Part shown: positions 22,443-59,726 of the stretch, one piece after another
How positions within the stretch are numbered: position 1 is the first letter of the stretch
How the letters are laid out: every line of letters begins with the position of its first letter
From: Gallionella sp.
Lineage (GTDB): Bacteria; Pseudomonadota; Gammaproteobacteria; Burkholderiales; Gallionellaceae
Assembly (NCBI GenBank): GCA_028689145.1
Contig: JAQTWT010000002.1
Coordinates: forward strand, 289,533-353,532
Length of the DNA stretch: 64,000 nt
Reading direction: 5' to 3'
Program-made: the position numbers and the translations under genes
Notes under the pieces: generated by a model
What the model was told of the DNA's origin: nothing
The model's database searches: none
Seen by the model: the letters and a program-made list of their open reading frames with translations, nothing else

Positions 22443-22513
22443 GACATTTCCTGAGTTGCGTGCAACGCGCATTTTAGCATCACGCTTACGCTAGAATGTG
22501 CACCTTATATTGC

Positions 22514-22579
22514 GTAGGGGCGTATGGCAATACGCTCTTGGTTTGTGTAGGGGCGTATGGCAATACGCCCTTGGGTTGT
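22514..22579 (+). repeat. Two tandem 33-bp GTAG-tagged REP units
   Basis: GTAGGGGCGTATGGCAATACGC(T/C)CTTGG(T/G)TTGT at 22514 and 22547, each with the internal palindrome GCGTAT..ATACGC. Confidence 0.88.
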
Positions 22580-43253: not shown

Positions 43254-45758
43254 TCAGGCACAAATGTAATAAGCGATGACCTCATTCCCTTTGCCAAAAT
43301 ATTCCAGTTTGTAGGCCATACTTTTCATCAGGGTGATGCCTCTGCCATGCTGCATCTGTTTAACTTGGCCGGGGGCGGGGGGCTGCATTGCCGCATAATC
43401 AAAGCCGTTGCCGCTGTCGGCCACACGAATCTTCACAGCTTGCCGGTTTTCAATGAATATTCTCTCGATGTCGATCTCGATCCTGCCGTTGCTGAGTTCC
43501 TGCATCCGCGTTTCGCGTAATTGCAGGAATTTGTCGAATCCGTCAGGCCCCAGTTTAATACCGGAATCAAGCTGCAATACACCGTGGTCGAGGGCGTTAT
43601 TGAACAATTCGGAAAGAATCAGGAATAGCGCGGAATGGTGTTCCCGGGTTACGTGAATTTTGGCGATGATTTGGGTGAGCAAAGGGACAACATCCAGGTA
43701 CTTCAGCTCGTTTGCGCCCAGACTGAGCGAAATTCTCCAGTCATCGCTTACTTCAGTCGTTTTGTGGGAATCCAGATTGCAGTGCAGTACGCCCGTATCT
43801 ATTTCGGCTGAAATATCCACCAATGCAAGCGAAATATCATCGTGCGCGCGTTGTCCGTGCAAGTGCCGGTCGAGTTTCGTGATCAGCGTCTCGAAGCGGG
43901 AGTGGTGCGCTGTTTCTTTGAATATTTCGACAATGCGTTCGTTGCCGAAGTACTCGCCCTGCGGAGAACAGGCTTCCGGCAGGCCGTCTGAAAACAGGCA
44001 CAACTGGCAATCTTCATCGTAAGAAAGAAACTCCGGCTTGCCGGAAAAATCTTCACCCGACAAGATACCCAACGGCAAATGCCTAGAATCGTAACTATGC
44101 AATAAACGGCCATTGCGCAGGAATAGCTGCGGCGCGGGGATTCCTCCATTCCATACTTCGACGATACGGGTCTGGCGGTTGATGGAAACCAGCGCGGCAG
44201 AAACAAAACGGTCCACCGGCATGAATTTGTTCACCAGTGAATTGAGCTCGACGGCGATCTCCTCGATGGAAAACCCCTTCGCGGTTAAATCGTAAAAAGA
44301 TTGGCATAACGGCAATACATTTATCGCGGCGCTAAGCCCGTGTCCGACCGCATCCGCCAGCAAAATATGCACGATGTTGTTTGGTGTTGTGGCTGCGATC
44401 AGGATGTCGCCGCTGAGATGGCTGGCCGATTTTGTGTAGCAGTGCATATAAGGAGCGACCTGTTCATCTATCTTGGTCATGCGCGACATGATGAAACTGC
44501 CGACACGCTGCTCTTCGTCTACACGGTCGCCGTATTCTTCCAGCACCAGTATCTTGCCGAGAAACTGTTGTTGCAATTCCACAACCCTGTCCAGCTTGCT
44601 GCCGGTGCGGCGGATCGGCCTCATGATACCGACGATGAACCAGATGGACAGCAGCAGGCCGCCCAAAGCCGCCGCCGCCAGTATTTCAACGGAACGGTCA
44701 CGCTGGAAACGGTAGGATTTCTCCAGCGCTTCATTGGTATCTCCCAGTCCGCGCAGCTGTTCTTCGCGAATCTTTGCGACAATCGCTTCAAAATCTTCGA
44801 TCACGCCGCGGTCGGCATCGCCGACCAGATTCTGGACAATCATGCTGGTCTCCGGCCGATGAATATCGAAAGATTTCAGCGCCGAGTGATATTGTTCGAC
44901 CAGTTGGGTATGCGACACCAACAACTCATCCAGAGCATCGGTAGACAACCCAAGTTGCTGCATGATCGGCTTTAACTGTCCGGTAAGCTTGCTTTCAACT
45001 TCATTCCCTTGCTGGTCGAATTTCTTCAGGTATTGCCGGAACAGCGTCGCATCGTGACCGCTAATCAAAATGTCTTTCCAAGTGTGCAATTGCTCCTTGA
45101 AAGTTGATTCTGCAACACGCGCGGTATCCACGGCATAAGCTTGTGTGCTGGAGGCGGCCAGACTTTCTAGCGCGTAATTGTTGGCTTGTGCCGCGATATA
45201 CAGGTTGAATATCCCGAAGATGACCAGCGTGCCGAGTAACATTGCGATGAGCGCCAGCAGCCGGATCTTGATGCTGATCGTTTCCATCCAGCGCAGCAGC
45301 CGGTTATTTGCCCGGATAACATTGCCGTCCTCGATGCGCAGCTTGGACAAGCCTCTGCGAATTTCCTGGTAAGCGACAGAGGCATACTTGATTTGATCGC
45401 GGGTGGCCTTGTAACGGAACGATACATAGCCGGTAGTTTTTCCATGTTCCTGCAACGGGGTGACGATGGCTGTCGTCCAGTAGTAACTGCCGTCTTTGCG
45501 CCGGTTTTTGACGATGCCCTGCCAGGGTTTGTTGGCTTTAATGGTTCGCCACAGGTCGGCGAACGCCTCGGGCGGCATGTCGGGATGACGAACTATATTG
45601 TGCGACGAACTGATCAGCTCATCGCGGCTATACCCGCTTATTTCGACAAACGTATTGTTGCAATAGGTGATGATCCCTTTGAGATCGGTTTTGGAAACGA
45701 TCACCGCGCCGTCCGGCAGCGTAAATTCAATATTGGAAACCGGCAAATTCAACCGCAT
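43254..45758 (-). CDS. Membrane sensor fusion: Aer-type PAS + periplasmic domain + PP2C/SpoIIE phosphatase + HATPase_c anti-sigma kinase
   Basis: [12 protein letters not shown]; two TMs; SGDILI, ADAVGHG, FSDGL, DDISL PP2C metal motifs; ELFNNALDHG, DSGNGF, HGRGI GHKL motifs. Confidence 0.88.
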   Translation of the reverse strand: MRLNLPVSNIEFTLPDGAVIVSKTDLKGIITYCNNTFVEISGYSRDELISSSHNIVRHPDMPPEAFADLWRTIKANKPWQGIVKNRRKDGSYYWTTAIVTPLQEHGKTTGYVSFRYKATRDQIKYASVAYQEIRRGLSKLRIEDGNVIRANNRLLRWMETISIKIRLLALIAMLLGTLVIFGIFNLYIAAQANNYALESLAASSTQAYAVDTARVAESTFKEQLHTWKDILISGHDATLFRQYLKKFDQQGNEVESKLTGQLKPIMQQLGLSTDALDELLVSHTQLVEQYHSALKSFDIHRPETSMIVQNLVGDADRGVIEDFEAIVAKIREEQLRGLGDTNEALEKSYRFQRDRSVEILAAAALGGLLLSIWFIVGIMRPIRRTGSKLDRVVELQQQFLGKILVLEEYGDRVDEEQRVGSFIMSRMTKIDEQVAPYMHCYTKSASHLSGDILIAATTPNNIVHILLADAVGHGLSAAINVLPLCQSFYDLTAKGFSIEEIAVELNSLVNKFMPVDRFVSAALVSINRQTRIVEVWNGGIPAPQLFLRNGRLLHSYDSRHLPLGILSGEDFSGKPEFLSYDEDCQLCLFSDGLPEACSPQGEYFGNERIVEIFKETAHHSRFETLITKLDRHLHGQRAHDDISLALVDISAEIDTGVLHCNLDSHKTTEVSDDWRISLSLGANELKYLDVVPLLTQIIAKIHVTREHHSALFLILSELFNNALDHGVLQLDSGIKLGPDGFDKFLQLRETRMQELSNGRIEIDIERIFIENRQAVKIRVADSGNGFDYAAMQPPAPGQVKQMQHGRGITLMKSMAYKLEYFGKGNEVIAYYICA

Positions 45759-45804
45759 CGATCAAATTCCTTCAAAGATACCTAATCATAACCGCAACTC
45801 TGTG

Positions 45805-47562
45805 TTAACCGGTACTGTCCGGTGCAAACTGGATGCGGTGAAGTTGCGCATACACCCCGTTTTTCGCCAGCAGCTCGCGGTGTGTGCCGATCTCGGCGAT
45901 TTCGCCTTTTTGCAACACCACAATCCGGTCCGCCTTTTCGATGGTCGACAGGCGGTGCGCGATTACCAGCGTGGTGCGGCCCTGCATCAGGGTTTCCAGC
46001 GCAGCCTGTACATGGCGTTCCGATTCGCTGTCCAGCGCCGAGGTCGCCTCGTCGAGGATCAGGATCGGCGCATCCTTGAGAATCGCGCGCGCGATGGCGA
46101 TACGCTGGCGCTGCCCGCCGGACAGCTTTACGCCGCGTTCGCCGACCAGTGTATTCAGACCTTCCGGCCACTCGCCGATGAATTCCATCGCGTGCGCGGC
46201 CTGTGCGGCGGCGATGATCTCGTCCTTGCCGACTGCGCGCATCTGCCCGTAGGCGATGTTTGCCGCGACCGTGTCGTTGAACAGCACCACCTCCTGGCTC
46301 ACCAGCGCGATATTGGCACGCAGGCTGGCGAGCGTCAGGTCGGCGAGGTTGTGTCCGTCGAGCAGGATCGCGCCGCCGGTCGGCGTATAGAAGCGCGGCA
46401 CCAGATTGGCCAGCGTGGTTTTGCCGCTGCCGGACGCGCCGACCAGCGCGACGTTCTCGCCGGCGCGTACCTGCAGCGTGATGTCCTGCAGCGCCTGGCG
46501 CCCGTCCGTCCCGTAGGCGAATTGCACATGGTCGAACTGCAACTCGCCGCGCACCCTGCCTATTGTCTCGGTGCCGCTGTCCGTTTCGCCTGCGGTATCG
46601 AGCAGCGCGAACACGCTCTCCGCCGCCGCCAGGCCGCGTTGCAGATATTCGCTCACACCGGTCAGGCGTTTCAGCGGCGCGGTCAGCATCAGCATTGCCA
46701 TGATGAACGACACGAAGCCGCCCACCGTAACCTCGTCGGTGTTGGATTGCAGCGTCGCCAGATACACCACTACCGCCAATGCCAGGGCCGCGACCATCTG
46801 CACGATCGGCACATTCGCCGCCGCTGCCGCCGCCTGCTTCATCGCATAGCGGCGCACCCAGTTGGCCTGCTCGTTGAAACGTTTGCTTTCATAGGGCTGC
46901 CCGCCGAACAGCTTGACCACCTTGTGCGCGGACACGCTTTCCTCGATCACCTGCGTGATGTAACCCATTGCGCGCTGCGAATCGCGGCTGCTGGTGCGCA
47001 TCCGCTTGCTGATGGTGCTGATGATGTAGGCGATAACCGGAGCCATCAGCAGCGTCAGCAGCGTCAGTTTCCAGTTGAGATAGAACAGCCAGCCGAGCAG
47101 CCCGACGATAACGATGCTGTCGCGCACCGCGATCGTCACCACCGTGGTGGCGGCATTGGTCACCTGCGTGACATCGAAAGTCAGTTTGGAAATCAGCGAG
47201 CCGGTGGCGTGGTCGTCGTAATAACGCGTTGGCAGGCTGAGCAGCTTGCGGAACATCGCGTCGCGCAGATCCATCACCAGTTTATTGCCCACCCAGTTGA
47301 TCGCGTAAGTGCCGATGAACGTCGCCAGCCCGCGCACCAGAAAGATCAGGATGATGACCACTGGAACCATGCGCATCATTTCCTGATCCTTGTGCACAAA
47401 CGTCCCGTCCAGCATCGGTTTCATCAGCGCCGGCACCAGCGGCTCGGTGATCGCGACCACCATCATGCCGAGCAGGGAAACCGCAAACACGCGCCAGTAA
47501 GGTTTGACGTAGGTGAGAAGGCGCAAATAAAGCTGGCTGCTGGTCATATTCATGGCGCGCAC
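45805..47562 (-). CDS. msbA: Lipid A export ABC transporter MsbA
   Basis: Six-TM domain, Walker A GASGSGKT, LSGGQRQR, LDEATSALD, AHRLSTI; the start may be ATG 47553. Confidence 0.95.
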   Translation of the reverse strand: MRAMNMTSSQLYLRLLTYVKPYWRVFAVSLLGMMVVAITEPLVPALMKPMLDGTFVHKDQEMMRMVPVVIILIFLVRGLATFIGTYAINWVGNKLVMDLRDAMFRKLLSLPTRYYDDHATGSLISKLTFDVTQVTNAATTVVTIAVRDSIVIVGLLGWLFYLNWKLTLLTLLMAPVIAYIISTISKRMRTSSRDSQRAMGYITQVIEESVSAHKVVKLFGGQPYESKRFNEQANWVRRYAMKQAAAAAANVPIVQMVAALALAVVVYLATLQSNTDEVTVGGFVSFIMAMLMLTAPLKRLTGVSEYLQRGLAAAESVFALLDTAGETDSGTETIGRVRGELQFDHVQFAYGTDGRQALQDITLQVRAGENVALVGASGSGKTTLANLVPRFYTPTGGAILLDGHNLADLTLASLRANIALVSQEVVLFNDTVAANIAYGQMRAVGKDEIIAAAQAAHAMEFIGEWPEGLNTLVGERGVKLSGGQRQRIAIARAILKDAPILILDEATSALDSESERHVQAALETLMQGRTTLVIAHRLSTIEKADRIVVLQKGEIAEIGTHRELLAKNGVYAQLHRIQFAPDSTG

Positions 47563-47628
47563 TTTAGCAGAAAAGTAGCCTTATCGGCGCGCCAGCGCCT
47601 TAAAACATGGAGCATCCTGCGGAGTGCC

Positions 47629-47704
47629 GTAGGCTGGGGTGAGGCACGAACCCCAGCGTTTGAAATCTCGAAATGCCGGGGTTCGCAAGCTCACCCCAGC
47701 CTAC
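47629..47704. repeat. GTAG-tagged REP doublet (REPIN-like)
   Basis: GTAGGCTGGGGTGAGGCACGAACCCCAGC ... GCCGGGGTTCGCAAGCTCACCCCAGCCTAC, inverted pair. Confidence 0.85.
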
Positions 47705-47766
47705 CGTGCTGGACATGCATTGCGCGCACTGCTAGTCTGGCTGCGCTTTCATTTTTACTGCTCATC

Positions 47767-48543
47767 ATGTTGCAAGAACTGCGTTTATTTCTCACTGCCG
47801 TCCAATTTTTCACGCGCATCCCGGTGCCCGCGTGGGTCGGCCATTCCGCGCAGCAACTCGAACAGGCCGCGCGCTACTTCCCGCTGGTCGGCATTTGCGT
47901 CGGCATGCTGTCCGCCGCCGTGCTGTATTTCGGCGCGCAACTGCTGCCGCTGGCGCTGGCGGTGGGGCTGAGCATCGCGGCCGGCATCCTCGTCACTGGT
48001 GCATTCCACGAAGACGGCCTGAGCGACTTTGCCGACGGCATGGGCGGCGGGCACAACAAGGAAAAAGCGCTGGCAATCATGAAGGATTCGCGCGTCGGCG
48101 CATACGGCGTGATCGCCCTGGTACTGGTGCTGCTGATGAAATACCAGGCGCTGCTGGCGCTGTGCGGCGTGCAATCGCTGCTGTTCGCCGCCGCCGCGCT
48201 GATCGCCGCGCATTCCTTCAGCCGCCTGATGGCTGCCAGCCTCATGCTGACCCAGCGCTACATCCGCGATGACGACAGCGCGCGCGCCAAACCCGCCGCG
48301 CAACTCAGCCATACCAGCTTCGCCATCGCGCTGCTCATCGGCATCGCGCCGCTCGACCTGCTGTTCATCGCCACCCCCGATCCGTATCCGGTGCTCGCCG
48401 CCGTCGCTGCCGCATTGCTGATGCGCATATACCTCGCATGGCGGCTGCAAAAACGGCTGGGCGGCTACACCGGTGACTGTCTCGGCGCGGTGCAGCAATT
48501 GTGCGAACTGGCGTTTTATCTCGGTTTGCTGGCCGCCTTGTAA
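47767..48543 (+). CDS. cobS: Adenosylcobinamide-GDP ribazoletransferase (cobalamin synthase)
   Basis: FFTRIP, TGAFHEDGLSDFADG, IMKDSRVGAYG, GGYTGDCLGA; the true start ATG 47767 lies inside the long 958-aa ORF call. Confidence 0.95.
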   Translation: MLQELRLFLTAVQFFTRIPVPAWVGHSAQQLEQAARYFPLVGICVGMLSAAVLYFGAQLLPLALAVGLSIAAGILVTGAFHEDGLSDFADGMGGGHNKEKALAIMKDSRVGAYGVIALVLVLLMKYQALLALCGVQSLLFAAAALIAAHSFSRLMAASLMLTQRYIRDDDSARAKPAAQLSHTSFAIALLIGIAPLDLLFIATPDPYPVLAAVAAALLMRIYLAWRLQKRLGGYTGDCLGAVQQLCELAFYLGLLAAL

Positions 48544-48721: not shown

Positions 48722-49270
48722 ATGTTTACGCAAACCCTGTATCTGATCCGCCACACCAAGCCCGACATTGCGCCCGGTACCTGTTACGGGCAACTCGACA
48801 TCGGGCTGACCGACAGCTTCGACGCGGAAGCGGATCGCGTGCTGCGCTGGCTCCCCTCCGTTGAACTCATTCTCACCTCGCCGCTGCAACGCGCTCACCG
48901 GTTGGCCGAACACTTGGCTCATGCTCAACACTGCGAATTGCGCAGCGATGCGCGCCTGATGGAAAAACACTTCGGTATATGGGAAGGCAAAGCGTGGAAC
49001 GACATCGCGCGCGACGAGATTGATGCCTGGGCTGCCGATGTAATGGGTTACGCCCCGCCGGGCGGTGAGTCGGCGCAGCAGCTGATGCAGCGCGTGCAGA
49101 GTTTGTTGCGCGACGTGGCGCAACTGCCGCAGCAAAACATCGCGCTGGTCGCGCACGGCGGGAGTATCCGCGCGCTGCTGGCGACGATTGGCGGGGTACC
49201 GCTGGCCGACACGTTGGATTGGGATGTGGGGTATGGGGCGGTGATCGGCGTGAAGGTATCCCTTTGCTGA
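48722..49270 (+). CDS. cobC: Histidine phosphatase, probable alpha-ribazole phosphatase
   Basis: LIRHTKP, TSPLQRA, RL.E..FG.WEG..W, PPGGES, VAHGGSIR; next to cobS. Confidence 0.85.
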   Translation: MFTQTLYLIRHTKPDIAPGTCYGQLDIGLTDSFDAEADRVLRWLPSVELILTSPLQRAHRLAEHLAHAQHCELRSDARLMEKHFGIWEGKAWNDIARDEIDAWAADVMGYAPPGGESAQQLMQRVQSLLRDVAQLPQQNIALVAHGGSIRALLATIGGVPLADTLDWDVGYGAVIGVKVSLC

Positions 49271-49279
49271 ATTTCAAGC

Positions 49280-49307
49280 AAAAAAAACGGCATCCGTGGA
49301 TGCCGTT
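49280..49307 (-). terminator. Intrinsic terminator of the candidate sRNA
   Basis: 9-bp stem with a 4-nt loop followed by a T-run on the minus strand (A8 at 49280-49287 on plus). Confidence 0.8.
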
Positions 49308-49371
49308 ATCAAAGGAGGAAGCCATCAGATTAATAATGAGAGGAGGGAGGAGCTTTTCTCATTAATCTGAT
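49280..49371 (-). ncRNA. Candidate ~92-nt sRNA with two anti-Shine-Dalgarno CU-rich motifs
   Basis: -10 TACAAT (49383-49378); 5' hairpin with loop CUCCUCCCUCC; linker UUCCUCCUUU; terminator AACGGCATC-cacg-GATGCCGTT followed by a U tract. Confidence 0.7.
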
Positions 49372-49404
49372 GAAATGATTGTAGTGGCGGGGGGAATATC
49401 GCGT

Positions 49405-49420
49405 TATGAACTGGTTCACA
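49405..49420 (-). promoter_or_regulatory. CRP-family binding site centred at -41.5 of the candidate sRNA
   Basis: TGTGA-accagt-TCATA, one mismatch to TGTGA-N6-TCACA; centre 49412.5 versus predicted +1 at 49371. Confidence 0.65.
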
Positions 49421-49517
49421 ATTGCATAAGTTTTTTCGCATTTCAAGCAAAGCAAAATCAACACCGCCGGGGGCAGCCTCGCTCAACCGCTGGCAATTGA
49501 CCGCTCGGACATTCCGG

Positions 49518-51680
49518 TCAGGCACTGTCGCCGTGCCGGGCTGCAACAGCGGATTTCCCGTTTGCTTCAATAATGGGCAGCCACTTGCCCAGCACTTTTC
49601 TAAGCTGCATCAGGTCGGACGGTTTGACCAGCAGATCATCCATGCCGGAAGCGTGACAGTGTCCCGCCTCCTCGGCAAGCGCATTGGCTGTCCATGCGAT
49701 GACCGGTATGCGCCGGCGCGACTCTGCTATTTCGCTCCGGCGTATCTCTCTGGCAAGCTCATAGCCGTCCATCTCGGGCATATGGCAATCGGTGATGACC
49801 ATCGCGAAGCGGCCGTCACGCCACATCGACAAAGCGACTTGCCCGTTCTCTGCTGTTTCGGCGCGCAGACCGAGCAGCCTGATCTGGTGTGCCAGCAGCT
49901 TCTGGTTGGTGGTATTGTCGTCCACTGCCAGTACCAGCGGGGCATCCGCGGTATTGGTGAACAGCGGCTTCACATCCCTTTGTCTCACTTCCGGATGCGT
50001 ATTCAGCACGTCCTCTCCCGGTGCGCCGGAAACGGGCAGGGCGAGCGTGATGCTGAAGATGGAGCCCTGCCCAAGCTCGCTTTTTAGTTCGATCTGCCCG
50101 TCCATCATCTCCGCCAAACGGCGGCATATCGCCAAGCCCAAGCCGGTCCCGCCATACATGCGCGCGGTGTCTGCGCTTTCCTGATGGTAGCGCTGGAACA
50201 ATTGTTCCTGAACCTCGCGCGAAATACCTTTGCCGGTGTCTTTGACAGAGAAACGTATGCGATCGCCGCCATCGAGATGGCTCATCAATTCGGCGCGCAC
50301 TTCGATCTCGCCATGTTGCGTGAACTTGATGGCATTGCTGACGAAATTGTTGAGCACCTGCGAAAGGCGCAGAGCATCGACGGTATAGGCCGAATGCAGC
50401 CGGGCATCGGCATGCTGCCAGAGCAGCAAGGTCTTGGCGCTGGCAACACGCGAGTAGGTGTTGACGACATCTTGCAGCATCTGCGTGATCGAAACGGGGT
50501 GAGGAGACAACTCAAGTTTCCCCTCTTCGATTTTCGACCAGTCGAGGATATCGCTGACGATACGCAACAGCCCTCTGCCGGAATCCCAGGCCGCATCCAC
50601 TGTATCCCGCTGCTCGCTATCCAGATCGGTCAACGAAAGCAGTTCCAGCATTCCGAGCATCCCGGTAAGCGGGGTGCGAATCTCATGGCTCATGGTGGCA
50701 AGGAACGAGTCTTTGGCGCTATTGGCCTTCTCGGCAGCCATTTTTAGTTCGTTGAGCGCCTGTTCCTTTGCCTTCGCTTCGCTGACATCATTGATCACCC
50801 ATATTTCACTGCCAGGCTGGCTGTGCGTGTCGAGCGATTTGGCAATCAGATGGCTCCAGAATTCTTCTCCGTCCTGGCGCAACATGCGGGACTCGATGCT
50901 GAACACCCCGTTCTCGGCCAAGCGTTCTCTGGCTGCATCGATCAACGGCAGGTTGCTGTCCGCAGTAGCAAGCAGAGTTTGCAGCGGCGTGCTAATCATC
51001 GCATCCGGCGCTGCGCACCTGAATATCTCGGCCGACTTCGGGTTGGCGCGGACGATGCGGCCATCCACCGAAAACACTATGCCAACCTGTACATTGTCGA
51101 GAATGGACTGCAGTTCCGAGGTGCGCTGCTGCACCCGTTGCTCGAGTTCTTCGTAGACACGAACATTCTCCATGGTCACGGCGGTAATATCCGCGAGCGC
51201 TTGCAGCACCTTGATCTGCTCCGGAGTCGGAAGATGTTGTGTCGCCCAGTAGTTGCCGATCGCGCCGACCGGGTCGATGGTGCGGATCGGCACCATGGCG
51301 AGACTGTGCACAAAAGTCGGACGGTAGGCGTCGGCCGGAATGCGCGGATCGGCATAAATATCCTCGATCACCGCCGGTTGCCGATTGATCATGGCCCAGC
51401 CGCTGATGCAGGTGCTCATCGGAAAACGCTGCCCTTTCCATAGCGGGCTGATGGCATCTTCCTCGGCATAAAAACACTTGCCGTTATCGCGCAGCACAAA
51501 CGTTGCACCATCGGCACCGGTCAATTTGCGCGCCGCATGCCGGACGATATCCATTACCGTAGCCAGATCGCGGGCGAGGGAAAGTTGTTGTACGACCTCA
51601 ACCAATTGCTCCATAGCCTGCGCATACCACAGGCTCGGCGTATCATCTTCCTGACTGACGGTTGCGAGACATTCATGCAT
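49518..51680 (-). CDS. Cytoplasmic hybrid histidine kinase (GAF-PAS-HisKA-HATPase-REC)
   Basis: GAF (DPRIPADAY), PAS, SHEIRTPL, NFVSNAIKFT, DTGKGI, GGTGLGL, receiver VDDN...ITDCHMP...KP; no TM. Confidence 0.93.
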   Translation of the reverse strand: MHECLATVSQEDDTPSLWYAQAMEQLVEVVQQLSLARDLATVMDIVRHAARKLTGADGATFVLRDNGKCFYAEEDAISPLWKGQRFPMSTCISGWAMINRQPAVIEDIYADPRIPADAYRPTFVHSLAMVPIRTIDPVGAIGNYWATQHLPTPEQIKVLQALADITAVTMENVRVYEELEQRVQQRTSELQSILDNVQVGIVFSVDGRIVRANPKSAEIFRCAAPDAMISTPLQTLLATADSNLPLIDAARERLAENGVFSIESRMLRQDGEEFWSHLIAKSLDTHSQPGSEIWVINDVSEAKAKEQALNELKMAAEKANSAKDSFLATMSHEIRTPLTGMLGMLELLSLTDLDSEQRDTVDAAWDSGRGLLRIVSDILDWSKIEEGKLELSPHPVSITQMLQDVVNTYSRVASAKTLLLWQHADARLHSAYTVDALRLSQVLNNFVSNAIKFTQHGEIEVRAELMSHLDGGDRIRFSVKDTGKGISREVQEQLFQRYHQESADTARMYGGTGLGLAICRRLAEMMDGQIELKSELGQGSIFSITLALPVSGAPGEDVLNTHPEVRQRDVKPLFTNTADAPLVLAVDDNTTNQKLLAHQIRLLGLRAETAENGQVALSMWRDGRFAMVITDCHMPEMDGYELAREIRRSEIAESRRRIPVIAWTANALAEEAGHCHASGMDDLLVKPSDLMQLRKVLGKWLPIIEANGKSAVAARHGDSA

Positions 51681-51895
51681 GGCAGCCCCCCAGATAGTCG
51701 ACTATCTTCGCTCCGCTTGCACCGGAACATCGAGTGTTGATTTGCAACCTTATCAACCGCTATCCGCTCTCGCAATATGCCAAAATATCTAGATAATTCG
51801 ACATAGGTGTTTATCTGACAATCTGCATGAAGTGATAGTGCGTAAGGAAGGTATGTTGGAATGTGCCTTGCGCAGTTTTTCGCCGGAAGCCGCAC

Positions 51896-51949
51896 GTAGG
51901 TTGGGTTGAGCCCTTCGATAAACTCAGGGCAGGCTCCGCGATACCCAAC
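51896..51949 (+). repeat. GTAG REP with a CTTCGA..CTCAGGGC element inserted in its loop
   Basis: GTAGGTTGGGTTGAG[CCCTTCGATAAACTCAGGGCAGGCTCC]GCGATACCCAAC. Confidence 0.7.
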
Positions 51950-51980
51950 ATCAAAATCAACACCGCCTGAGATACAACTA

Positions 51981-52019
51981 CTCCCTCTCCCCTCGCGGGA
52001 GAGGGTTGGGGAGAGGGGG
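51981..52019. repeat. CCCTCTCCC-family palindrome (intergenic copy)
   Basis: CTCCCTCTCCCCTCGCGGGAGAGGGTTGGGGAGAGGG, near-identical to the copies at 56113 and 57057. Confidence 0.85.
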
Positions 52020-52021
52020 GT

Positions 52022-52292
52022 AAATCAACACCGCCGGGGGTAGCCCGGCAGCTAGTCACTTTTTCTTGCTTCGCCAAAGAAAAAGTAACCAAAAAGAAGG
52101 CGCCCCCGGTTTGCCGCCCCTGCGGGGTTCCCTCGATCAACTGCAAGCAAGCGGGGCTGCGGAACTCGCGCTATGCGCTCAGACAGTCCTCGCCTAAACC
52201 TCCGCCTGCTTGCAGTTGATCGAGGCGGCGCTCAGGGGAGGAAAATCAAAACCCAAAAGCAAAGGCATGGTGAGCTGTGCTCACCATGCCTT
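52022..52292 (+). mobile_element. Structured ~250-bp dispersed element, left copy (MITE-like or ncRNA-like)
   Basis: AAATCAACACCGCCGGGGG start, ACTTTTTCTTGCTTCGCCAAAGAAAAAGT hairpin, long stem, A-rich tail, terminal 14-bp perfect palindrome; inverted homologue at 53278-53549. Confidence 0.7.
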
Positions 52293-52312
52293 GAAATTAA
52301 ATGCGATGCTAA

Positions 52313-53194
52313 CTATTCAAATTCTTTGAAAAAGTCATGATTGATATCAAAAACAACTCTTGGAGTCAGCCCGAATTTAAGCTTTTCGAACATCGATACC
52401 AACTTTTCACCATCAACCAATTCTATGGGGGGTACGCCGTCCCGAACGGCCTCATTTTTTGCATCTTGGGTAAACCGTCCGGTAGTGATGATTATTCCCT
52501 TATCGGCTCTCCCCGCCATCGCTCCCCTAAAGTCCCTTACCTTGTCAGTAGAAACAACCTCCTTGTATCTCTTCGACTGAAAAAGGACTTTGAAACTCAT
52601 CAGTGGGTTCAGTTCCAAAACTCCATATCCATCAATTCCACCGTCTCCCGATTTCCCTGTAACTTTTACATGCGAAAACCCCGATTCACGAAGCAGCCGT
52701 TGGCATAACCGCTCAAATCCTTCTGGTGGAAGCTGCTTCAAAATTTCAAGAACCTGCACGCGATAGTTCTCGTCTTCTACTTTTTCTTCTATCTCTTCAT
52801 CTATTCCAAATGATATATGTGTGTCTGTTGAGGACGCTACTTTCTTCTTGTCAAAGATGCCATGCGTCTTCGAAAAAAATTCGCTAGGCTTCTCAAGGTC
52901 AATTAAATCTAAGTAATTTGGCTTCAATATCCAAACTCCACGTTTAGTGGAATCAAGCACACCACCTTTAACCAAATAGAACCTGGCCCACGCAATTCGG
53001 TTTTTTACCGTTGAGCCACCATTTTTATTTCTTAACTCAAGCTCTTCTTCAGAAATGTTATAGCGCTCAATAATCAGATCCGTAACTTCAGCAGGATTAC
53101 CTGAGCCACCCAATTCCCGAAGAATCTCAATAATTGGAACAAAGTACTTTGTGAAATCGGGGCCTTTTATATGTTTTAGTGCTTTCTTTGCCAT
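52313..53194 (-). CDS. mrr: Mrr-family (type IV-like) restriction endonuclease
   Basis: Mrr N-terminal wHTH (LRELGGSG...NRIAWAR.YL.K.G), catalytic GDGGIDG...FQSKRY, VRDFRG, LVDGEKL; AT-rich. Confidence 0.92.
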   Translation of the reverse strand: MAKKALKHIKGPDFTKYFVPIIEILRELGGSGNPAEVTDLIIERYNISEEELELRNKNGGSTVKNRIAWARFYLVKGGVLDSTKRGVWILKPNYLDLIDLEKPSEFFSKTHGIFDKKKVASSTDTHISFGIDEEIEEKVEDENYRVQVLEILKQLPPEGFERLCQRLLRESGFSHVKVTGKSGDGGIDGYGVLELNPLMSFKVLFQSKRYKEVVSTDKVRDFRGAMAGRADKGIIITTGRFTQDAKNEAVRDGVPPIELVDGEKLVSMFEKLKFGLTPRVVFDINHDFFKEFE

Positions 53195-53277
53195 TTCAAA
53201 TTTCCTTTATGAGTCTTGCGGAAGGCTCCAATGTACCGGAGTCGAATTGTTTTTGCTATCTGCCTCAATGATGTGGC

Positions 53278-53549
53278 GGGCAACTTGTTGCCCATCTGGT
53301 TTTAAGGTTTTTGATTTTTGTTTTACCTCCCCTGAGCGCCGCCGAGTAGCGCAGGCGGGTCAGGGGATTTCGGCGAGGACTGTCTGAGCGCGCAGCGCGA
53401 GTTCCGCAGCCGCCTGACCAGTCGAGCAACGCAGGGAACCCGAAGGGCGGCAAACCGGGGTCGCCTTTTCTTTGGTTACTTTCTTTTTGGCGAAGCAAAA
53501 GAAAGTAACTAGCTGCCGGGCTACCCCCGGCGGTGTTGATGTTGATTTT
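53278..53549 (-). mobile_element. Structured ~250-bp dispersed element, right copy (inverted)
   Basis: Reverse complement matches the left copy over the first ~110 nt and the GGAACTCGCGCT..GCGCTCAGACAGTCCTCGCC core; ends in an A-rich tail and GGGCAAC-aa-GTTGCCC. Confidence 0.7.
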
Positions 53550-53565
53550 GATCTACGTTCAAGCA

Positions 53566-53591
53566 CCCTTCGACAGGCTCAGGGCGAACGG
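53566..53591 (+). repeat. CTTCGACAGGCTCAG-family repeat
   Basis: CCCTTCGACAGGCTCAGGGCGAACGG; related copies at 51911 and 55283-55379. Confidence 0.75.
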
Positions 53592-53607
53592 TGAACGAAA
53601 TAAAAAC

Positions 53608-54660
53608 CTAAATCTTCCCCGATACTGCCGCCTCGGCAAACGTCGCCATCCCGTTATGCAATGCACACGCCAGTTGCAGCATCGGCACCGCCATCGCCGC
53701 ACCGCTGCCCTCTCCCAGCCGCATGCCGAGTTGCAGCAGCGGTTGCGCGTTGAGTGCGGCGAGCACGCACTGATGGCCAGGTTCGGCGGAGGTGTGCGCG
53801 AAGATCAGCCAGCTGCTGACATGCGGGTTGAAGCGCACCGCGACCAGCGCGGCAACCGAGCTGATGAAGCCGTCCACCAGCACCGGGATGCCGTTTTGCG
53901 CGGCGGCCAGATACGCGCCGGTCAATGCGGCGATTTCGAAGCCGCCCAGATGGCGCAATACGTCGAGCGGTTGCGTCAGGTTGGCCTGATGCAGGTTCAG
54001 CGCGCGTTGGATCACGATGGCTTTGTGCGCCACGCCGTGGTTGTCCAGCCCGGTGCCGGGGCCAGCCAGCAGCTGCGGCGATTCATGCAATATTGCGCAG
54101 GCGATGGCGCTGGCCGAGGTGGTGTTGGCGATACCCATTTCGCCGCCGATGAACAGTTGCGCACCATCCTGTTTGGCGCGCAACAGCGCGGCCCGCCCGG
54201 CTTGCAATGCGGCGGCCAGTTGCGCTTCGGTCATTGCCGAGTCGCGCGCAAAATTGGCGGTGCCTGCCGCGATGCGTTCATCGCGCACGTTGGTCAACGG
54301 TTCGACCGGCGCTACCGTGCCGAGGTTGACGACTTCCAGCGTGGCGTTCAGGCGTTTGGCTAGCACGCTGATCGCCGCGCCGCCGCGCGCAAAGTTGCGC
54401 ACCATTTCGGCGGTGACGGCCTGCGGGAAGGCTGATACGCCTTCTGCCGCGACACCGTGATCGGCGGCGAAGATGCTGATATAGGCGCGCTCCAGCTGCG
54501 GCTTTTCGCTGCCCTGCATCGCGGCCAGTTGCACCGCGATGGCTTCCAGCCTGCCCAGCGAGCCGGGCGGTTTGGTGAGTTGTCCCTGCCGTGCCAGCGC
54601 CGCTGCGCGCGAAGTTTCGTTCAATACGGCACAGGGTTGTACCAGCCAATCGGTGTTCAT
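53608..54660 (-). CDS. cobT: Nicotinate-nucleotide dimethylbenzimidazole phosphoribosyltransferase
   Basis: [46 protein letters not shown]. Confidence 0.97.
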
Positions 54661-54695
54661 ATTCTCTCCTTGAAAAACGTGTAATTATTTTTTAT

Positions 54696-54720
54696 TAGTC
54701 GTGCGCACAGCGCACGCTAC
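54696..54720 (-). repeat. Single GTAG-tagged REP
   Basis: Minus strand GTAGCGTGCGCTGTGCGCACGACTA, between cobU and cobT. Confidence 0.65.
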
Positions 54721-54724
54721 ATTG

Positions 54725-55243
54725 TTACGGTGATCCTTTTACCGCCAGCGGTAATCCTGCCACCATCAGCGTCACGCGCTCGCACAATGCGGCGATCTGC
54801 TGGTGTAATCGCCCGGCTTCATCGCAGTAACGGCGCGACAATTCGCCCATCGGCACGATGCCCATGTTGGTCTCGTTGCTGACCAGAATGATCTGTCCGG
54901 GCAGTTGCGGCAGCGCTTCCAGCAGTGCGGCACACTCGCGCTGCAACTCCGCTTCGCTGGCATCGCACAGCAGTTGCGTCAGCCATAGCGTCACGCAATC
55001 CACCAGTATGCAACGCTGCGCGCCGGCTTCGCGTTGCAGCACTTCGGCCAGATTCTGTCCGGCTTCTACCGATAGCCAATGATCCGGTCGGCGTGCCTGA
55101 TGTTCCGCGACGCGCCGCTGCATCTCCGCATCGCGTACCTGTGCGGTAGCGACATATACCACCTGCAAGCCGGAAGCCTGCGCGCGCTGTTCCGCCAGAC
55201 GGCTCTTGCCGGAGCGCACGCCACCGAGGATTAGTTCGCGCAT
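54725..55243 (-). CDS. cobU: Adenosylcobinamide kinase/guanylyltransferase
   Basis: LGGVRSGKS, YVATA...D.EM..RV..HQ.RRP..W, VDCVTLW, VSNETNMG, MVAGLP. Confidence 0.96.
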   Translation of the reverse strand: MRELILGGVRSGKSRLAEQRAQASGLQVVYVATAQVRDAEMQRRVAEHQARRPDHWLSVEAGQNLAEVLQREAGAQRCILVDCVTLWLTQLLCDASEAELQRECAALLEALPQLPGQIILVSNETNMGIVPMGELSRRYCDEAGRLHQQIAALCERVTLMVAGLPLAVKGSP

Positions 55244-55282
55244 GATGTTTTTCCTGATTCAATACTGTTCATTTAAGAATAT

Positions 55283-55379
55283 CCGTTCGCCCTGACCCTT
55301 CGACTTTGCTCAGGACTAAAGGCTTTGTCGAAGGGCTTTGGGTGAGTAGCAGGTGGTTCGACAGGCTTACCACGAACGG
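55283..55379. repeat. CTTCGACAGGCTCA-family doublet with a nested copy
   Basis: CCGTTCGCCCTGA[CCCTTCGACTTTGCTCAGGACTAAAGGC]TTTGTCGAAGGG ... GGTTCGACAGGCTTACCACGAACGG. Confidence 0.7.
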
Positions 55380-55397
55380 TTAAGTGAGACTGCTGCT

Positions 55398-56870
55398 TCA
55401 TAATCCGAATAACTGCCGCAGTTGTTTACCATCCAGATGCTGTTCCACCGCATCGGCGAGCCGGTCGATGTCGGTTTCGCGGCGTGCATGATAATCCGGC
55501 GTGGCCACTTCGCGTAGTCCCGCCCAGCGCAACAGCGCGTCGGTCGCCTGCCGCGATTCGAACAGGCCGTGCAGATAGCTGGCGAGAATTTGCCCGTCAT
55601 CCGAGATTGCGCCATCCGCACCGTGTTCGAGTTGCACGGCCGGATGTTGCAGCGCGCGGCCTGTGGTAACCCCGGCGTGTATCTCGTAACCCGTTACCGG
55701 CGCGCCTTCCAGCGTCAGTGTGCCGCGCACGTTGCGCAGTTGTTTTTCCGCTTCCAGCGTGGTGTTCAGTTCCAGCAGGCCGAGTCCGGCGCTGCTGCCG
55801 GTGTCGCCTTCCAGCCCGAGCGGGTCGTGGAGTTTCTGTCCCAGCATCTGCAAACCGCCGCAGATGCCGATCAGTTTTCCGCCGTAGCGCAGATGGCGCT
55901 GTATTGCGGCTTCCCAGCCCGCCTTGCGCAGGCTGGCCAGATCGTTGCGCACCGCTTTGCTGCCCGGCAGGATGATCAGGTCGGCATCGGGAATCGCCGC
56001 GCCCATCGCGACGAAGCTGAACTCGATCTGCGGATGCAGGCGCAGCGGATCGAAGTCGGTGTGGTTGCTGATATGCGGCAGGGTGGGGACGATTACGCGC
56101 AGTTTGTTTTTACTCCCTCTCCCGCTTGCGGGAGAGGGTTGGGGAGAGGGTGGCACCGCATCTTCCGCTTCCAGATGAAAATCGTGCAAATACGGCAGTA
56201 CGCCGAGCACCGGTTTTCCGGTGCGCTGCTCCAGCCAGTCCAGCCCCGGCTGCAACAGCGCCAGATCGCCGCGAAAACGGTTGATGACGAAACCCGCCAC
56301 GCGCGCCTGTTCGCTTGGCGTGAGTAATTCCAGTGTGCCGACCAGATGGGCGAATACGCCGCCTTTGTCGATGTCGCCGATCAGGATCACCGGGCAATCC
56401 ACCGCTTCGGCGAAGCCCATGTTGGCGATGTCGTTCTCGCGCAGGTTGATTTCGGCGGGACTGCCCGCGCCTTCCACGACGATCACTTGATATTGATCGC
56501 TCAGGCGGCGGTGCGATGCCAGCACCGCCGCGCGCGCGGTGCTTTTGTACTGGTGATATTCCAGCGCTTCCATGTTGCCGATGGCGTGGCCGTGAATGAT
56601 GACCTGCGCGCCGGTGTCGCTGTTCGGTTTGAGCAGCACCGGATTCATATCGGTGTGCGGCGCGAGGCGCGCGGCCTGCGCCTGCACCGCCTGCGCGCGA
56701 CCGATCTCGCCGCCGTCGCCGGTGACTGCGCTGTTCAGCGCCATGTTCTGCGGCTTGAACGGCACGACGCGCACATCCTGACGCACCAGCCAGCGGCAGA
56801 GCGCAGCGACCAGCGTACTCTTGCCGGCATCGGAAGTGGTGCCCTGCACCATCACGGTTGTGGCGTTCAT
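55398..56870 (-). CDS. cobQ: Cobyric acid synthase
   Basis: [65 protein letters not shown]. Confidence 0.97.
56113..56150. repeat. CCCTCTCCC-family palindrome translated inside cobQ
   Basis: Encodes [13 protein letters not shown] between HLEAEDAV and KLRVIVP. Confidence 0.88.
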
Positions 56871-57895
56871 CGTTCGATCCGGTTCAGCGCTTCAGCCAGG
56901 CGCGCCCACTGCGCCTCATCGCGCGGCAAGCCAAAGCGCACGCTGTGCGGTGCGTCATACAAACGGGTCAGGATGCCCTGTTGCGCCAGTTGCTTGTGCA
57001 CGTTCGCGGCATCCGCGCAGCACACCCACTGGAACAGGCTGTTGCCGCCAGAATTTCTCCCCTCTCCCGCTTGCGGGAGAGGGGCTGGGGGAGAGGGTGA
57101 GATTAAACCATGCGTGCGCAGCAGTTCCGCCAGACGTTGCGCTGCCAGCGGCAGCGCTTTGCGAGTCGCGTCCTGCCAAGCCGTATCACACAACGCCAGT
57201 GTCGCGACATGGCGCGACGGTGCGGCGATTGTCCACGGCCCGAGCAACTCGGCGAGCGGATGCAATACCGTTTTTTCCGCCAGCACGAAACCGACCCGCG
57301 CCCCCGCCAGCCCGAAAAATTTGCCGAGCGAACGCAGCACGATCAGGCCGGGAAGCGGGCAGAGCGAAGCGAGGCTGTGTTCGGGTGTGGCATCGATGAA
57401 CGCTTCGTCCACCACCAGCCAGCCGTTGCGCGCTGCCAGACTCGTATGCATGCCGAGCAATTCATCGCGGCCGAACAGTTTGCCGGTGGGGTTGTTCGGG
57501 TTGATGATGACCACGACTTGTGCGGTTTCGGCGGCGCGCTGAATCTCCGCCGCAGGAACCGTGCTGACACGGTGACCGTTGCGCCGCCAGGCATGTGCGT
57601 GTTCCGCATAACTGGGTGCGACAAGTGCTACCTGTGCGGCCGGGAGCAGCATCGGCAGCGCCTGGATTGCCGCCTGCGAACCGGCCACCGCCAGCAATTT
57701 TGTCGTGCCGTAATAATCTTGCGCGGCGGCCTCCAGCCCGTCATCGTCCTGCGGCAGGCGTTGCCAGATTTCGTCCGGTATGGCGGGTACCGGCCAGCCG
57801 TCCGGGTTGATGCCGGTGGACAAATCCAGCCAGTCGTTTTCGGGAATGCCGTATTGCCGCGCCGCGCGACGCAGCCTGCCGCCGTGTTCAAGCAT
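56867..57895 (-). CDS. cobD: Threonine-phosphate decarboxylase (PLP-dependent; CobD in Salmonella naming, CobC in Pseudomonas denitrificans naming)
   Basis: [48 protein letters not shown]. Confidence 0.92.
57057..57097. repeat. CCCTCTCCC-family palindrome translated inside cobD
   Basis: Encodes [15 protein letters not shown] between LRTHGLI and [11 protein letters not shown]. Confidence 0.88.
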
Positions 57896-58853
57896 GTTGC
57901 CATCCTGTTATCAACAACGCTCCCAGCGTAATGACGATCAGCCAGGCATATAGCGTGTGGCGCACCAGCTGCACGGCGCGCGCAATGTCGGCCGCCCCGG
58001 CGGCCATGCCGCAGCCGAGCGCCGGGCGCTGTTCCACCGCGCCGTGGTAGATCGCCGCGCCGCCGAGTTGCACGCGCAACGCGCCCGCACCGGATGCCAT
58101 CACCGGCCCGGCGTTCGGGCTGTCCCAGCCTGGTGCCTGCTGCCGCCAGCAGCGCAGCGCGCTGCGCGTGTGCCCGAGTAGCGCGTAGCTTAAGGCAGTC
58201 AGGCGTGACGGGATGAAATTCAATACGTCGTCGAGCCGCGCCGCCGCCCAGCCGAAATAGTTGTAGCGCGCGTTGCGGTAGCCCCACATCGCATCCAGCG
58301 TATTGCTCAGGCGATACAGCAATACGCCCGGCGCACCGGCCAGCACAAACCAGAACAGCGCGGCGAAAATCGCATCGTTGCCGTTTTCCAGCACCGATTC
58401 CACCGTGGCGCGCGCCACGCCGGATTCGTCCAATTGGCTGGTGTCGCGGCTGACTAGATAGCTCACCTGCTGGCGCGCATCGGGCAGATTGCCGGCAGAA
58501 AAAGCGTCCGCCACGCGCGCGGCGTGTTCGCTCAGGCTGCGCGGCGCGATGGCGAAATACAGCAGGATTATGGAGAGCAGCGTGCCGAAGATCGCGAGCT
58601 GTTGCAGCAGCGCGGCGAGTGCCACCAGCGGGATCAGTAATGCGCAGACCGAGATGATGCCGCGCAGGTAGTGCATTGCGGGGGAGGCATCGGCTGTTCC
58701 ATAAAATATTTTTTCGATGCGCCGCGCCAGATTGCCGAAGCCGACCAGCGGATGGAAACGGTGCGGCTCACCCAGCCACCGGTCGAGCAGTACCGCCGCC
58801 AATATCATCAGCGGTATCGCCAGATCATTTAATAATTGCGTTGCCTGCATCAT
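57888..58853 (-). CDS. cbiB: Adenosylcobinamide-phosphate synthase CbiB
   Basis: LD..LGEP..FHPLVGFG, VSRDT..L, VESVLEN.ND, YRLSNTLDAMWGY, ARLDDVLNFIPSRL, SPNAG; start at 58853 is ATGA-coupled to bluB. Confidence 0.95.
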   Translation of the reverse strand: MMQATQLLNDLAIPLMILAAVLLDRWLGEPHRFHPLVGFGNLARRIEKIFYGTADASPAMHYLRGIISVCALLIPLVALAALLQQLAIFGTLLSIILLYFAIAPRSLSEHAARVADAFSAGNLPDARQQVSYLVSRDTSQLDESGVARATVESVLENGNDAIFAALFWFVLAGAPGVLLYRLSNTLDAMWGYRNARYNYFGWAAARLDDVLNFIPSRLTALSYALLGHTRSALRCWRQQAPGWDSPNAGPVMASGAGALRVQLGGAAIYHGAVEQRPALGCGMAAGAADIARAVQLVRHTLYAWLIVITLGALLITGWQHA

Positions 58854-59509
58854 TCTTTCGCGCGGCATCCCCAGCTATTTTCAAACAGCATCTCGTGCAG
58901 CGGCTGCGGCGTGCGCCATTGTTCCAGCTGCAACATCGGTGCGGGATAAAACTCTTCGACCTGACCGATACACAGGATCGCGACCGGCTTGCCGCCCGCT
59001 GGGATGTTCAGCAGTGCCGCGAGCGCCTGCGGATCGAACAGCGACACCCATCCCATCCCCAATCCTTCGGCACGCGCCGCCAGCCACATGTTCTGGATGG
59101 CGCAGGCGACCGAGGCGAGATCCATGTCCGGCATGGTGCGCCGCCCGAAGATGTGCTCGTCGCGCTGATCCATCAGGCTGACCACCCACAGTTCGGCACA
59201 ATCGCGTATCCCCTCGACTTTCAGGCGCAGGAATTCCTTGTCGCGTTCGCCGAGCGCCTGTGCGGTCAATTGTCTTTCGGCTTTCACCAGCGCGTGGATT
59301 TGCCCGCGCAACGCGCTGTCGCTGATGCGGATGAATCGCCACGGTTGCATCAGCCCGACACTGGGTGCCTGATGCGCGGCATGCAGAATGCGTTGCAGGA
59401 TTTCGGCCGGAACCGGGTCGCTGCGAAAATGGCGCATGTCGCGCCGTTCGGCGATCACGCGGTACACGGCGGCGCGTTCGGCGTCGGAAAAACGATGCGG
59501 CAAGCTCAT
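58850..59509 (-). CDS. bluB: 5,6-dimethylbenzimidazole synthase
   Basis: RRDMRHF, AHQAPSVGLMQPWRF, LKVEGI, GRRTMPDMD.ASV.CAIQNMWLAARAEGLG.GWVS; start set at ATG 59509. Confidence 0.94.
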   Translation of the reverse strand: MSLPHRFSDAERAAVYRVIAERRDMRHFRSDPVPAEILQRILHAAHQAPSVGLMQPWRFIRISDSALRGQIHALVKAERQLTAQALGERDKEFLRLKVEGIRDCAELWVVSLMDQRDEHIFGRRTMPDMDLASVACAIQNMWLAARAEGLGMGWVSLFDPQALAALLNIPAGGKPVAILCIGQVEEFYPAPMLQLEQWRTPQPLHEMLFENSWGCRAKE

Positions 59510-59591
59510 GGTCAAAGTATCCGCGCGATTGCGTCCGGATTGGATTGGGAATGACGGGCTAATGCGGTGCTTTGCAAGTATAGATGCCATT

Positions 59592-59637
59592 GTAGGGGCG
59601 GATTTATTCGCCCACGGGCGGATAAATCCGCCCCTAC
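59592..59637. repeat. GTAG-tagged REP doublet (compact REPIN)
   Basis: GTAGGGGCGGATTTATTCGCCC-AC-GGGCGGATAAATCCGCCCCTAC. Confidence 0.88.
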
Positions 59638-59726
59638 AGAGTTGCTACCTATGAATCGAATGGTTTCGGCTATTCCGAAGCAAGCCACTAGTGGATTATT
59701 TTGGTTGAAACCACCTTGTCTGACGC

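Follow-up and report, generated by a model that had tools for sequence, protein, structure and literature searches.

Organization of the cobC-kinase intergenic region

The window, that is, the whole 64-kb stretch of DNA that we analyzed, derives from a Gallionella-like betaproteobacterium. The closest relatives of its CobC and kinase proteins bear the names Gallionella sp. or Gallionellaceae. When we searched a word index of public runs, the entire stretch was present in one run only, a landfill metagenome. The genes cobC and a hybrid histidine kinase are convergent here and leave a gap of 247 bp between them, in which a candidate small RNA (sRNA) sits. The GC content of this sRNA unit is 41%, against 56% for the window. 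The elements detected in the region were:

48722-49270, plus strand: cobC (His_Phos_1)
49271-49282, minus strand: 12-bp direct repeat, downstream copy (TTTGCTTGAAAT on the minus strand)
49280-49371, minus strand: predicted sRNA of 92 nt (+1 = A49371, end of U8 = 49280)
49280-49307, minus strand: intrinsic terminator with a 9-bp stem (5 G-C pairs), a 4-nt loop and U8
49311-49320, minus strand: CU motif 2, UUCCUCCUUU, in a single-stranded linker (fold prediction)
49324-49371, minus strand: 5' hairpin of 9+6 bp with a 3-nt bulge and the loop AAAGCUCCUCCCUCC (fold prediction)
49342-49352, minus strand: CU motif 1, CUCCUCCCUCC, in the hairpin loop, complementary to GGAGGGAGGAG
49378-49383, minus strand: -10 hexamer TACAAT (position -12 to -7), no extended -10
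49405-49420, minus strand: CRP/FNR-superfamily-like box TGTGA-ACCAGT-TCATA, centered at -41.5 from the predicted start
49421-49442, minus strand: A-rich conserved stretch upstream of the box (-50 to -71), with 4 substitutions inside
49440-49451, minus strand: 12-bp direct repeat, upstream copy, an exact match to the downstream copy
49518-51680, minus strand: GAF-PAS hybrid histidine kinase (720 aa)

The U tract and the promoter-like pattern of conservation fix the strand of the sRNA as minus. The run of U8 follows the stem on the minus strand only, and the promoter elements are found upstream on that same strand. The terminator stem-loop (49307-49286, then U8) can act in the minus direction only, since the A run comes ahead of the stem when the plus strand is read. 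As cobC is convergent, there is no minus-strand gene downstream of the unit, so that it is not a leader or a riboswitch, and this reading was rejected. The unit has the general attributes of a trans-acting sRNA ended by a terminator, namely a promoter of its own (predicted), an intrinsic terminator and no downstream gene on the same strand. A further one is that its conservation is above that of the flanking sequence.

Both neighboring genes have peculiarities. cobC lacks an intrinsic terminator; a terminator scan of the plus strand detected none between its stop codon (49270) and position 49574, and the first terminator-like site (49574-49591) is already within the kinase gene. Therefore, cobS-cobC transcripts probably run antisense through the sRNA gene and the 3' end of the kinase gene. 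The hybrid kinase is devoid of the C-terminal Hpt domain typical of most of its homologues, which have ~800-845 aa. This domain is also missing in the closest kinase relatives (720-722 aa), with or without the sRNA alongside, and thus the truncation of the kinase is not tied to the sRNA. At the Rfam gathering score the whole 64-kb window is without a cobalamin riboswitch despite having at least eight cobalamin genes.

A predicted promoter of class II

Two promoter elements had been proposed on the minus strand in the initial annotation, a TGTGA-N6-TCATA box centered at -41.5 and a -10 hexamer TACAAT, and both were found (49420-49405 and 49383-49378, respectively). Along this strand the order is the box, a 21-nt spacer, TACAAT, CATTTC, the A at 49371 and then UCAGAUUAAUGAGAAAAGCUCCUCCCUCCUCUCAUUAUUAAUCUGAUGGCUUCCUCCUUUGAUAACGGCAUCCACGGAUGCCGUUUUUUUU up to 49280. 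The box itself reads TGTGAACCAGTTCATA and belongs to a longer palindrome, TTGTGAAC-CA-GTTCATAA. Its left half (TGTGA) is of the CRP type rather than the FNR type, and its right half is imperfect (TCATA, not TCACA). The box is centered at 49412.5, exactly -41.5 from A49371, a position at which it would overlap and replace the -35, as is characteristic of class II promoters. The +1 at 49371 is a prediction based on the position of the -10 and on the edge of the conserved block. There is no usable -35, the corresponding position reading TAACGC, and a two-hexamer sigma-70 scan of the region gave no match. A good -10 without a -35 points, therefore, to a promoter that would depend on a CRP/FNR-superfamily dimer at -41.5. 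The A-rich stretch located upstream (49421-49442) may be an UP element. The box alone is not above chance, with 2 matches at one mismatch or less versus 2.4 expected. No gene of the CRP/FNR family was found within the 64-kb window.

Transcript and predicted fold

Measured from the start set by the -10 to the end of the U8 (49371-49280), the transcript would have 92 nt, exactly the size that had been put forward. Its predicted layout consists of a 15-bp 5' hairpin, a 16-nt single-stranded linker, a 9-bp terminator stem and U8. The minimum free energy of the 92-nt RNA is -28.2 kcal/mol. A 98-nt version reached -31.8 kcal/mol (z = -5.9) and none of 200 shuffled sequences was as stable. The 5' hairpin of the initial annotation was recovered, with a small difference in the pairing since it folds as 9+6 bp with a 3-nt bulge and not as 12+4 bp. 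The GC stem with its U tract was also there (49307-49286 plus U8). The two CU motifs, described as exposed in the loop and in the linker, had high probabilities of being unpaired in the predicted fold: ~1.0 for most of CUCCUCCCUCC, with two positions at 0.2, and 0.70-1.0 for UUCCUCCUUU. This second motif resembles the 3' end of 16S rRNA, which is the part that recognizes Shine-Dalgarno sites. Taken by itself, the CU 11-mer does not exceed chance. The features that do exceed chance are the stability of the fold and the conservation across samples.

Homologues in other metagenomes

Synteny of the flanking genes failed at first to provide homologues, and these were located afterwards through the word index of public runs. 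Near-identical copies of the unit were found in five other metagenomes, from aquatic (X3), soil (X5 and X9), groundwater (X8) and drinking-water (X10) samples. A sixth one, from groundwater (X2), is partial and divergent. The whole X3 contig (L136) has the same gene order as the window, cobC, sRNA unit and kinase, and in X9 and X10, as in the window and X3/L136, the unit is adjacent to cobC.

Between L136 and the window, all 92 bases of the transcript match (92/92) and the sole difference is an additional C in the terminator loop, while the DNA of cobC is only 84% identical (72% at third codon positions) and that of the kinase 92% (85% at third positions). With a neutral divergence of 15%, the probability of finding zero changes in 92 nt is ~3e-7. 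The identity of the transcript in the face of 15-28% neutral divergence in its neighbors makes selection on the exact non-coding sequence the simplest reading. To the extent that a comparison can show it, the contrast between 92/92 and the 84% of cobC supports a discrete promoter-sRNA-terminator unit under strong constraint.

Considering all the full homologues, the changes within the transcript were restricted to G49323A (X8 and X9), which affects the first linker base after the 5' stem, the insertion in the terminator loop (X3, X5 and X10) and the last U (X9). Changes appear just outside, at -1, -2 and -6 upstream and from 49279 downwards. The conserved block is thus delimited by the predicted +1 on one side and by the U-tract end on the other. 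Of the 92 transcript positions 2 are variable, versus 13 of the 71 positions of the promoter region (p = 0.0006, Fisher's test). None of these 13 promoter sites (-1 to -71) falls in the 16 positions of the half-sites and the -10 (p = 0.025). The half-sites of the box are unchanged in L136/X3, X5 and X8, and also among those differences of X2 that have a given position; the single change seen in the box affects its central spacer (49412, in X2). The -10 hexamer is unchanged in all the listed differences of the homologues. The homology between samples ends near 49442 (-71), where the contigs of X3, X8 and X2 stop fitting, and beyond this point there are at least two different upstream flanks among the samples. 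All the full homologues are nearly identical and the stems show no compensatory changes.

The copy in X2 covers 49354-49442, is more divergent and has a promoter ~85% identical. It has 13 differences, 7 of them without a listed position, so that the box half-sites of X2 can be called invariant only with regard to the differences listed. Its loop motif is altered (CGCCCUCCGC) and a U run replaces the 3' arm: its sequence at the place of the loop and 3' arm is AGCAUCGCCCUCCGCUCAUUAUUUUUU, after which the contig stops. This copy could be a variant member of the family or an artefact of the contig. The CU motifs, whose conservation in relatives had been proposed as a check, are unchanged in the full homologues, and only CCCUCC is retained in the partial copy of X2.

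Distribution of the unit

The unit had been described as unannotated, and the comparison with Rfam placed it in no family. No Rfam family was detected at gathering score over the whole window, and permissive E-values gave none either. The best-scoring Rfam alignments were weak, 16 bits for ar14 (threshold 58.8) and 15.6 for mmgR (threshold 41). RF02278 gave 14.4 bits versus a threshold of 50 (E = 0.69 in a search with 109 nt), in an alignment that spans only motif 2 and the terminator. A covariance-model search with the filters off retrieved no second copy in the 64-kb window, the next best minus-strand match having 10.3 bits (E = 1.9).

The pair of CU motifs had at least 119 matches in the genome collection, in unrelated phyla of bacteria and archaea, and among these loci neither blastn nor nhmmer detected a homologue. 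Hence, the pair of CU motifs alone is not specific. A scan of the JGI metagenomes with the exact 24-base two-motif pattern retrieved only two low-complexity chance matches. There were no matches to the unit in viral contigs or in plasmids. The unit is also absent after cobC in seven related loci (L001, L003, L137 and L140-L143) and beside the kinase orthologues of L004-L016. The kinase orthologues that are 86-89% identical lie elsewhere, without the sRNA unit, and no other locus compared has it. From these searches, the sRNA family looks narrowly distributed.

Comparison with known small RNAs

The double-hairpin RNAs of Burkholderia (ncS03/05/27/62), the "Betaproteobacteria toxic small RNA" of Rfam (RF02278), act on ribosome-binding sites by CU-rich unpaired tracts and are found in 3-5 dispersed copies per genome (PMC5688073). 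They have a layout in common with our candidate, a 5' hairpin, a terminator hairpin and CU tracts mostly unpaired, which is a resemblance and not homology: the RF02278 model matched the candidate neither in sequence nor in structure (14.4 versus 50 bits). The candidate has one copy in the 64-kb window. Its long AT-rich first stem of 15 bp and the CRP-type box in its promoter set it apart from the Burkholderia RNAs.

The CU tracts of the Neisseria sRNAs NmsRA/NmsRB (also RcoF1/2 or NgncR_162/163) act on ribosome-binding sites as well and repress the translation of metabolic genes (PMC5362039). Like the candidate, they have two UC-rich anti-Shine-Dalgarno tracts, one in a loop and another in a linker, completely conserved within the group. 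[quoted passage not shown] Of the two tandem homologous copies that define NmsR, we found one copy only.

The cuckoo RNAs have 2-4 adjacent hairpins, each with CCUCCUCCC in the loop (PMC4615179). To this group belongs the alpha-r14 family (NfeR1, CcsR; RF02344; PMC4615179). The candidate has a loop motif of this type, GCUCCUCCC, with a match at 8 of 9 positions. Nevertheless, it has a single hairpin with a near-motif, its second tract being linear in the linker. The cuckoo RNAs are alphaproteobacterial and the candidate comes from a different class of bacteria, with 16 bits versus 58.8 against ar14.

[quoted passage not shown] The enterobacterial FnrS, the gonococcal and meningococcal FnrS (AniS) and the candidate have in common the class II site at -41.5, the 5' stem-loop, a pairing region and the terminator. 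However, the sites of FnrS are FNR boxes (TTGAT-N4-ATCAA), whereas the box found here has TGTGA to the left and a degenerate TCATA to the right. There is no sequence similarity between them and the seeds of FnrS are not CU-repeat tracts. A CRP-dependent sRNA also exists in Enterobacteria, CyaR, that represses translation by pairing near ribosome-binding sites. Its sequence is unrelated, it belongs to a different bacterial class and the candidate had no Rfam match. The candidate is best filed, judging from its sequence, as a new and narrowly distributed family of a known kind, the CU-rich anti-Shine-Dalgarno type with a putative FnrS-like drive.

Proposed function and alternative explanations

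The anatomy of the unit, the stability of its fold and its pattern of conservation support an independently transcribed sRNA with a class II promoter of the CRP/FNR type. It is probably a new regulatory RNA of a familiar kind that would block ribosome-binding sites. In the reading that we prefer, and to which we give moderate confidence, this is a 92-nt, independently transcribed and trans-acting sRNA of a Gallionella-like betaproteobacterium, class II-activated and blocking Shine-Dalgarno sites. Transcription would start around 49371, activated in the class II manner by a dimer of the CRP/FNR superfamily bound at -41.5, and would end at the GC stem and U8. The tracts CUCCUCCCUCC in the loop and UUCCUCCUUU in the linker would then pair with the purine-rich Shine-Dalgarno regions of the targets, and ribosome binding would be blocked there. 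Hfq could bind to the U tail together with the UA-rich stretch that precedes the terminator. By analogy, the layout matches that of the characterized RNAs that occlude ribosome-binding sites, i.e. NmsR, the Burkholderia double-hairpin RNAs and the cuckoo RNAs.

The sRNA could be real and yet act mainly in cis, as an antisense to cobC read-through, in the decay of the cobC mRNA or by transcriptional interference. The adjacency to cobC, kept in the window, X3/L136, X9 and X10, fits this explanation, and so does the overlap that is likely given that no plus-strand terminator was detected from the stop of cobC (49270) to 49574. However, an antisense RNA is complementary whatever its sequence, which leaves unexplained the letter-perfect conservation while cobC changed by 16%, as well as the two unpaired tracts complementary to Shine-Dalgarno sequences. 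Moreover, close relatives retain cobC without the sRNA, and we consider a role mainly in cis unlikely. We regard as equally unlikely that the sRNA is expressed but does not target Shine-Dalgarno sites, its tracts perhaps finding other G-rich partners or sequestering a protein that binds pyrimidines, for example ribosomal protein S1 or Hfq. The anatomy and conservation would be accounted for just as well as by the preferred explanation, and a naive duplex scan of the start regions in the window, which ignores intramolecular structure, yielded no usable target. Against it stands the closeness of motif 2 to the tail of 16S rRNA. In addition, the characterized sRNAs of CU-rich layout with which we compared the candidate act at ribosome-binding sites (PMC5362039, PMC5688073, PMC4615179).

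A different type of explanation is that the unit is not selected as an RNA but is a recently spread piece of mobile or recombined DNA, possibly MITE-like, whose identity between samples reflects recent transfer. Several observations go in this direction: the sharp edges of homology (49442 and 49281) with at least two upstream flanks, the 41% GC of the unit versus 56% in the window, the 12-bp direct repeat that brackets it in the window and a locus rich in further repeats and rearrangements. On the other hand, there is one copy in the window and none in the other loci compared, the unit occupies the same place close to cobC in most samples and looks orthologous, the 12-bp repeat is not shared with L136, X9 and X10, and neither viral contigs nor plasmids have the unit. 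The substitutions are concentrated in the flanks and in the spacer of the promoter, a pattern predicted by selection. There are no terminal inverted repeats other than the RNA hairpin, and a MITE was rejected as the identity of the unit. Overall, recent spread of such DNA seems to us rather less probable than the two previous alternatives. Two further readings were considered. A functional plus strand, as a purine-rich element (GGA/GGAGG) in the 3' UTR of cobC, for example a protein-binding site of the CsrA type, would show GGAGGGAGGAG in the loop of the same hairpin and AAGGAGGAA in the linker, and there is no cobC terminator ahead of it. But on the plus strand a U tract follows neither hairpin, conservation continues for 70 nt beyond the hairpin with the pattern of a minus-strand promoter, and no usable start is found behind AGGAGG (ATC comes next and a 9-aa ATG ORF is 17 nt away), all of which makes it very improbable. 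The last one, a tiny protein, we find the hardest to believe. Two short ORFs do exist, encoding 10 aa (MRKAPPSSHY, minus strand) and 9 aa (MRGGRSFSH, plus strand). Both lack a ribosome-binding site at a suitable distance, every base is conserved including the would-be wobble positions and the part outside the ORFs, and a search with all six reading frames joined, aimed at miscalled ORFs, gave no protein at the locus. With no protein relatives either, this candidate was rejected.

The Gallionellaceae are uncultured or hard-to-grow iron oxidizers, and our literature search surfaced no described regulatory RNA for this family. If the blocking of Shine-Dalgarno sites by a trans-acting sRNA is correct, an sRNA under a sensor of the CRP/FNR type and endowed with two ribosome-binding-site mimics would provide a simple path from an environmental signal, possibly oxygen, nitric oxide or a cyclic nucleotide, to the control of translation. 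The gain would be a new family and a testable entry point to a regulon, the kind of regulator being well known and involving no new principle. From the methodological point of view, the case shows that conservation alone, read from short contigs of public metagenomes, can be enough to set the precise limits of a non-coding gene.

Repeats and rearrangements around the locus

The 12-bp direct repeat that brackets the unit is exact (49271-49282 and 49440-49451), as had been described. The suggestion drawn from it, that the unit had been acquired as a whole, is not supported: the repeat is absent in L136, X9 and X10, and local repeats of this kind are common, with nine 12-bp direct repeats in the window. 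In L136 the place of the upstream copy is taken by CTCTGGTAAT along with ~70 additional bases, and that of the downstream copy by CACCCGAAAT; X9 and X10 differ from the window in the downstream copy. Being specific to the window, the repeat was rejected as evidence of acquisition. There is only a slim chance that promoter, sRNA and terminator form a self-contained cassette, a mobile regulatory RNA gene relocating between intergenic sites of Gallionellaceae, with the 12-bp repeat as the footprint of the last insertion and the neighboring repeats as substrate for recombination.

A second repeat, of 19 nt (AAATCAACACCGCCGGGGG), appears four times, twice exactly, with 0 expected by chance. Its copies flank the kinase and Mrr genes:

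49455-49473, plus strand: 19-nt repeat
51954-51972, plus strand: 19-nt repeat
52022-52040, plus strand: 19-nt repeat
53524-53542, minus strand: 19-nt repeat

Read on the minus strand, the first of these copies (49455-49473) contributes to a terminator-like hairpin located after the kinase. In L136, a related sequence (gttgatttgg...aaccaaacctacg) is found in the interval from the kinase to the sRNA promoter. The 19-nt repeat may correspond to cassette borders or to a REP-like element.

The site 3' of cobC is highly variable among Gallionella relatives: in L001 it is occupied directly by ffh, in L003 by a response regulator, in L143 by a hicB-like gene and in L137 by other sequence. A distance of ~10.4 kb (49270-59727) separates cobC from ffh in the window, while some relatives join both genes directly. 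This segment holds the sRNA, the kinase, an Mrr-type nuclease and the cluster cobT-cobU-cobQ-cobD-cbiB-bluB, in which cobD is an aminotransferase and bluB is bluB-like. Judged by gene order, the locus is a rearrangement hotspot.

Upstream of cobC, the ORF at 45667-48543 (plus strand, 958 aa) is an artefact of a long open frame, and only its residues 711-952 match CobS. The rest overlaps a minus-strand ORF of 585 aa (45805-47562), at the place where the close relatives L001 and L002 have an ABC transporter gene. The real start of cobS is probably near 47785. Elsewhere in the window, positions 22510-22575 contain a tandem pair of 33-nt units (TTGCGTAGGGGCGTATGGCAATACGC...) that are 91% identical.
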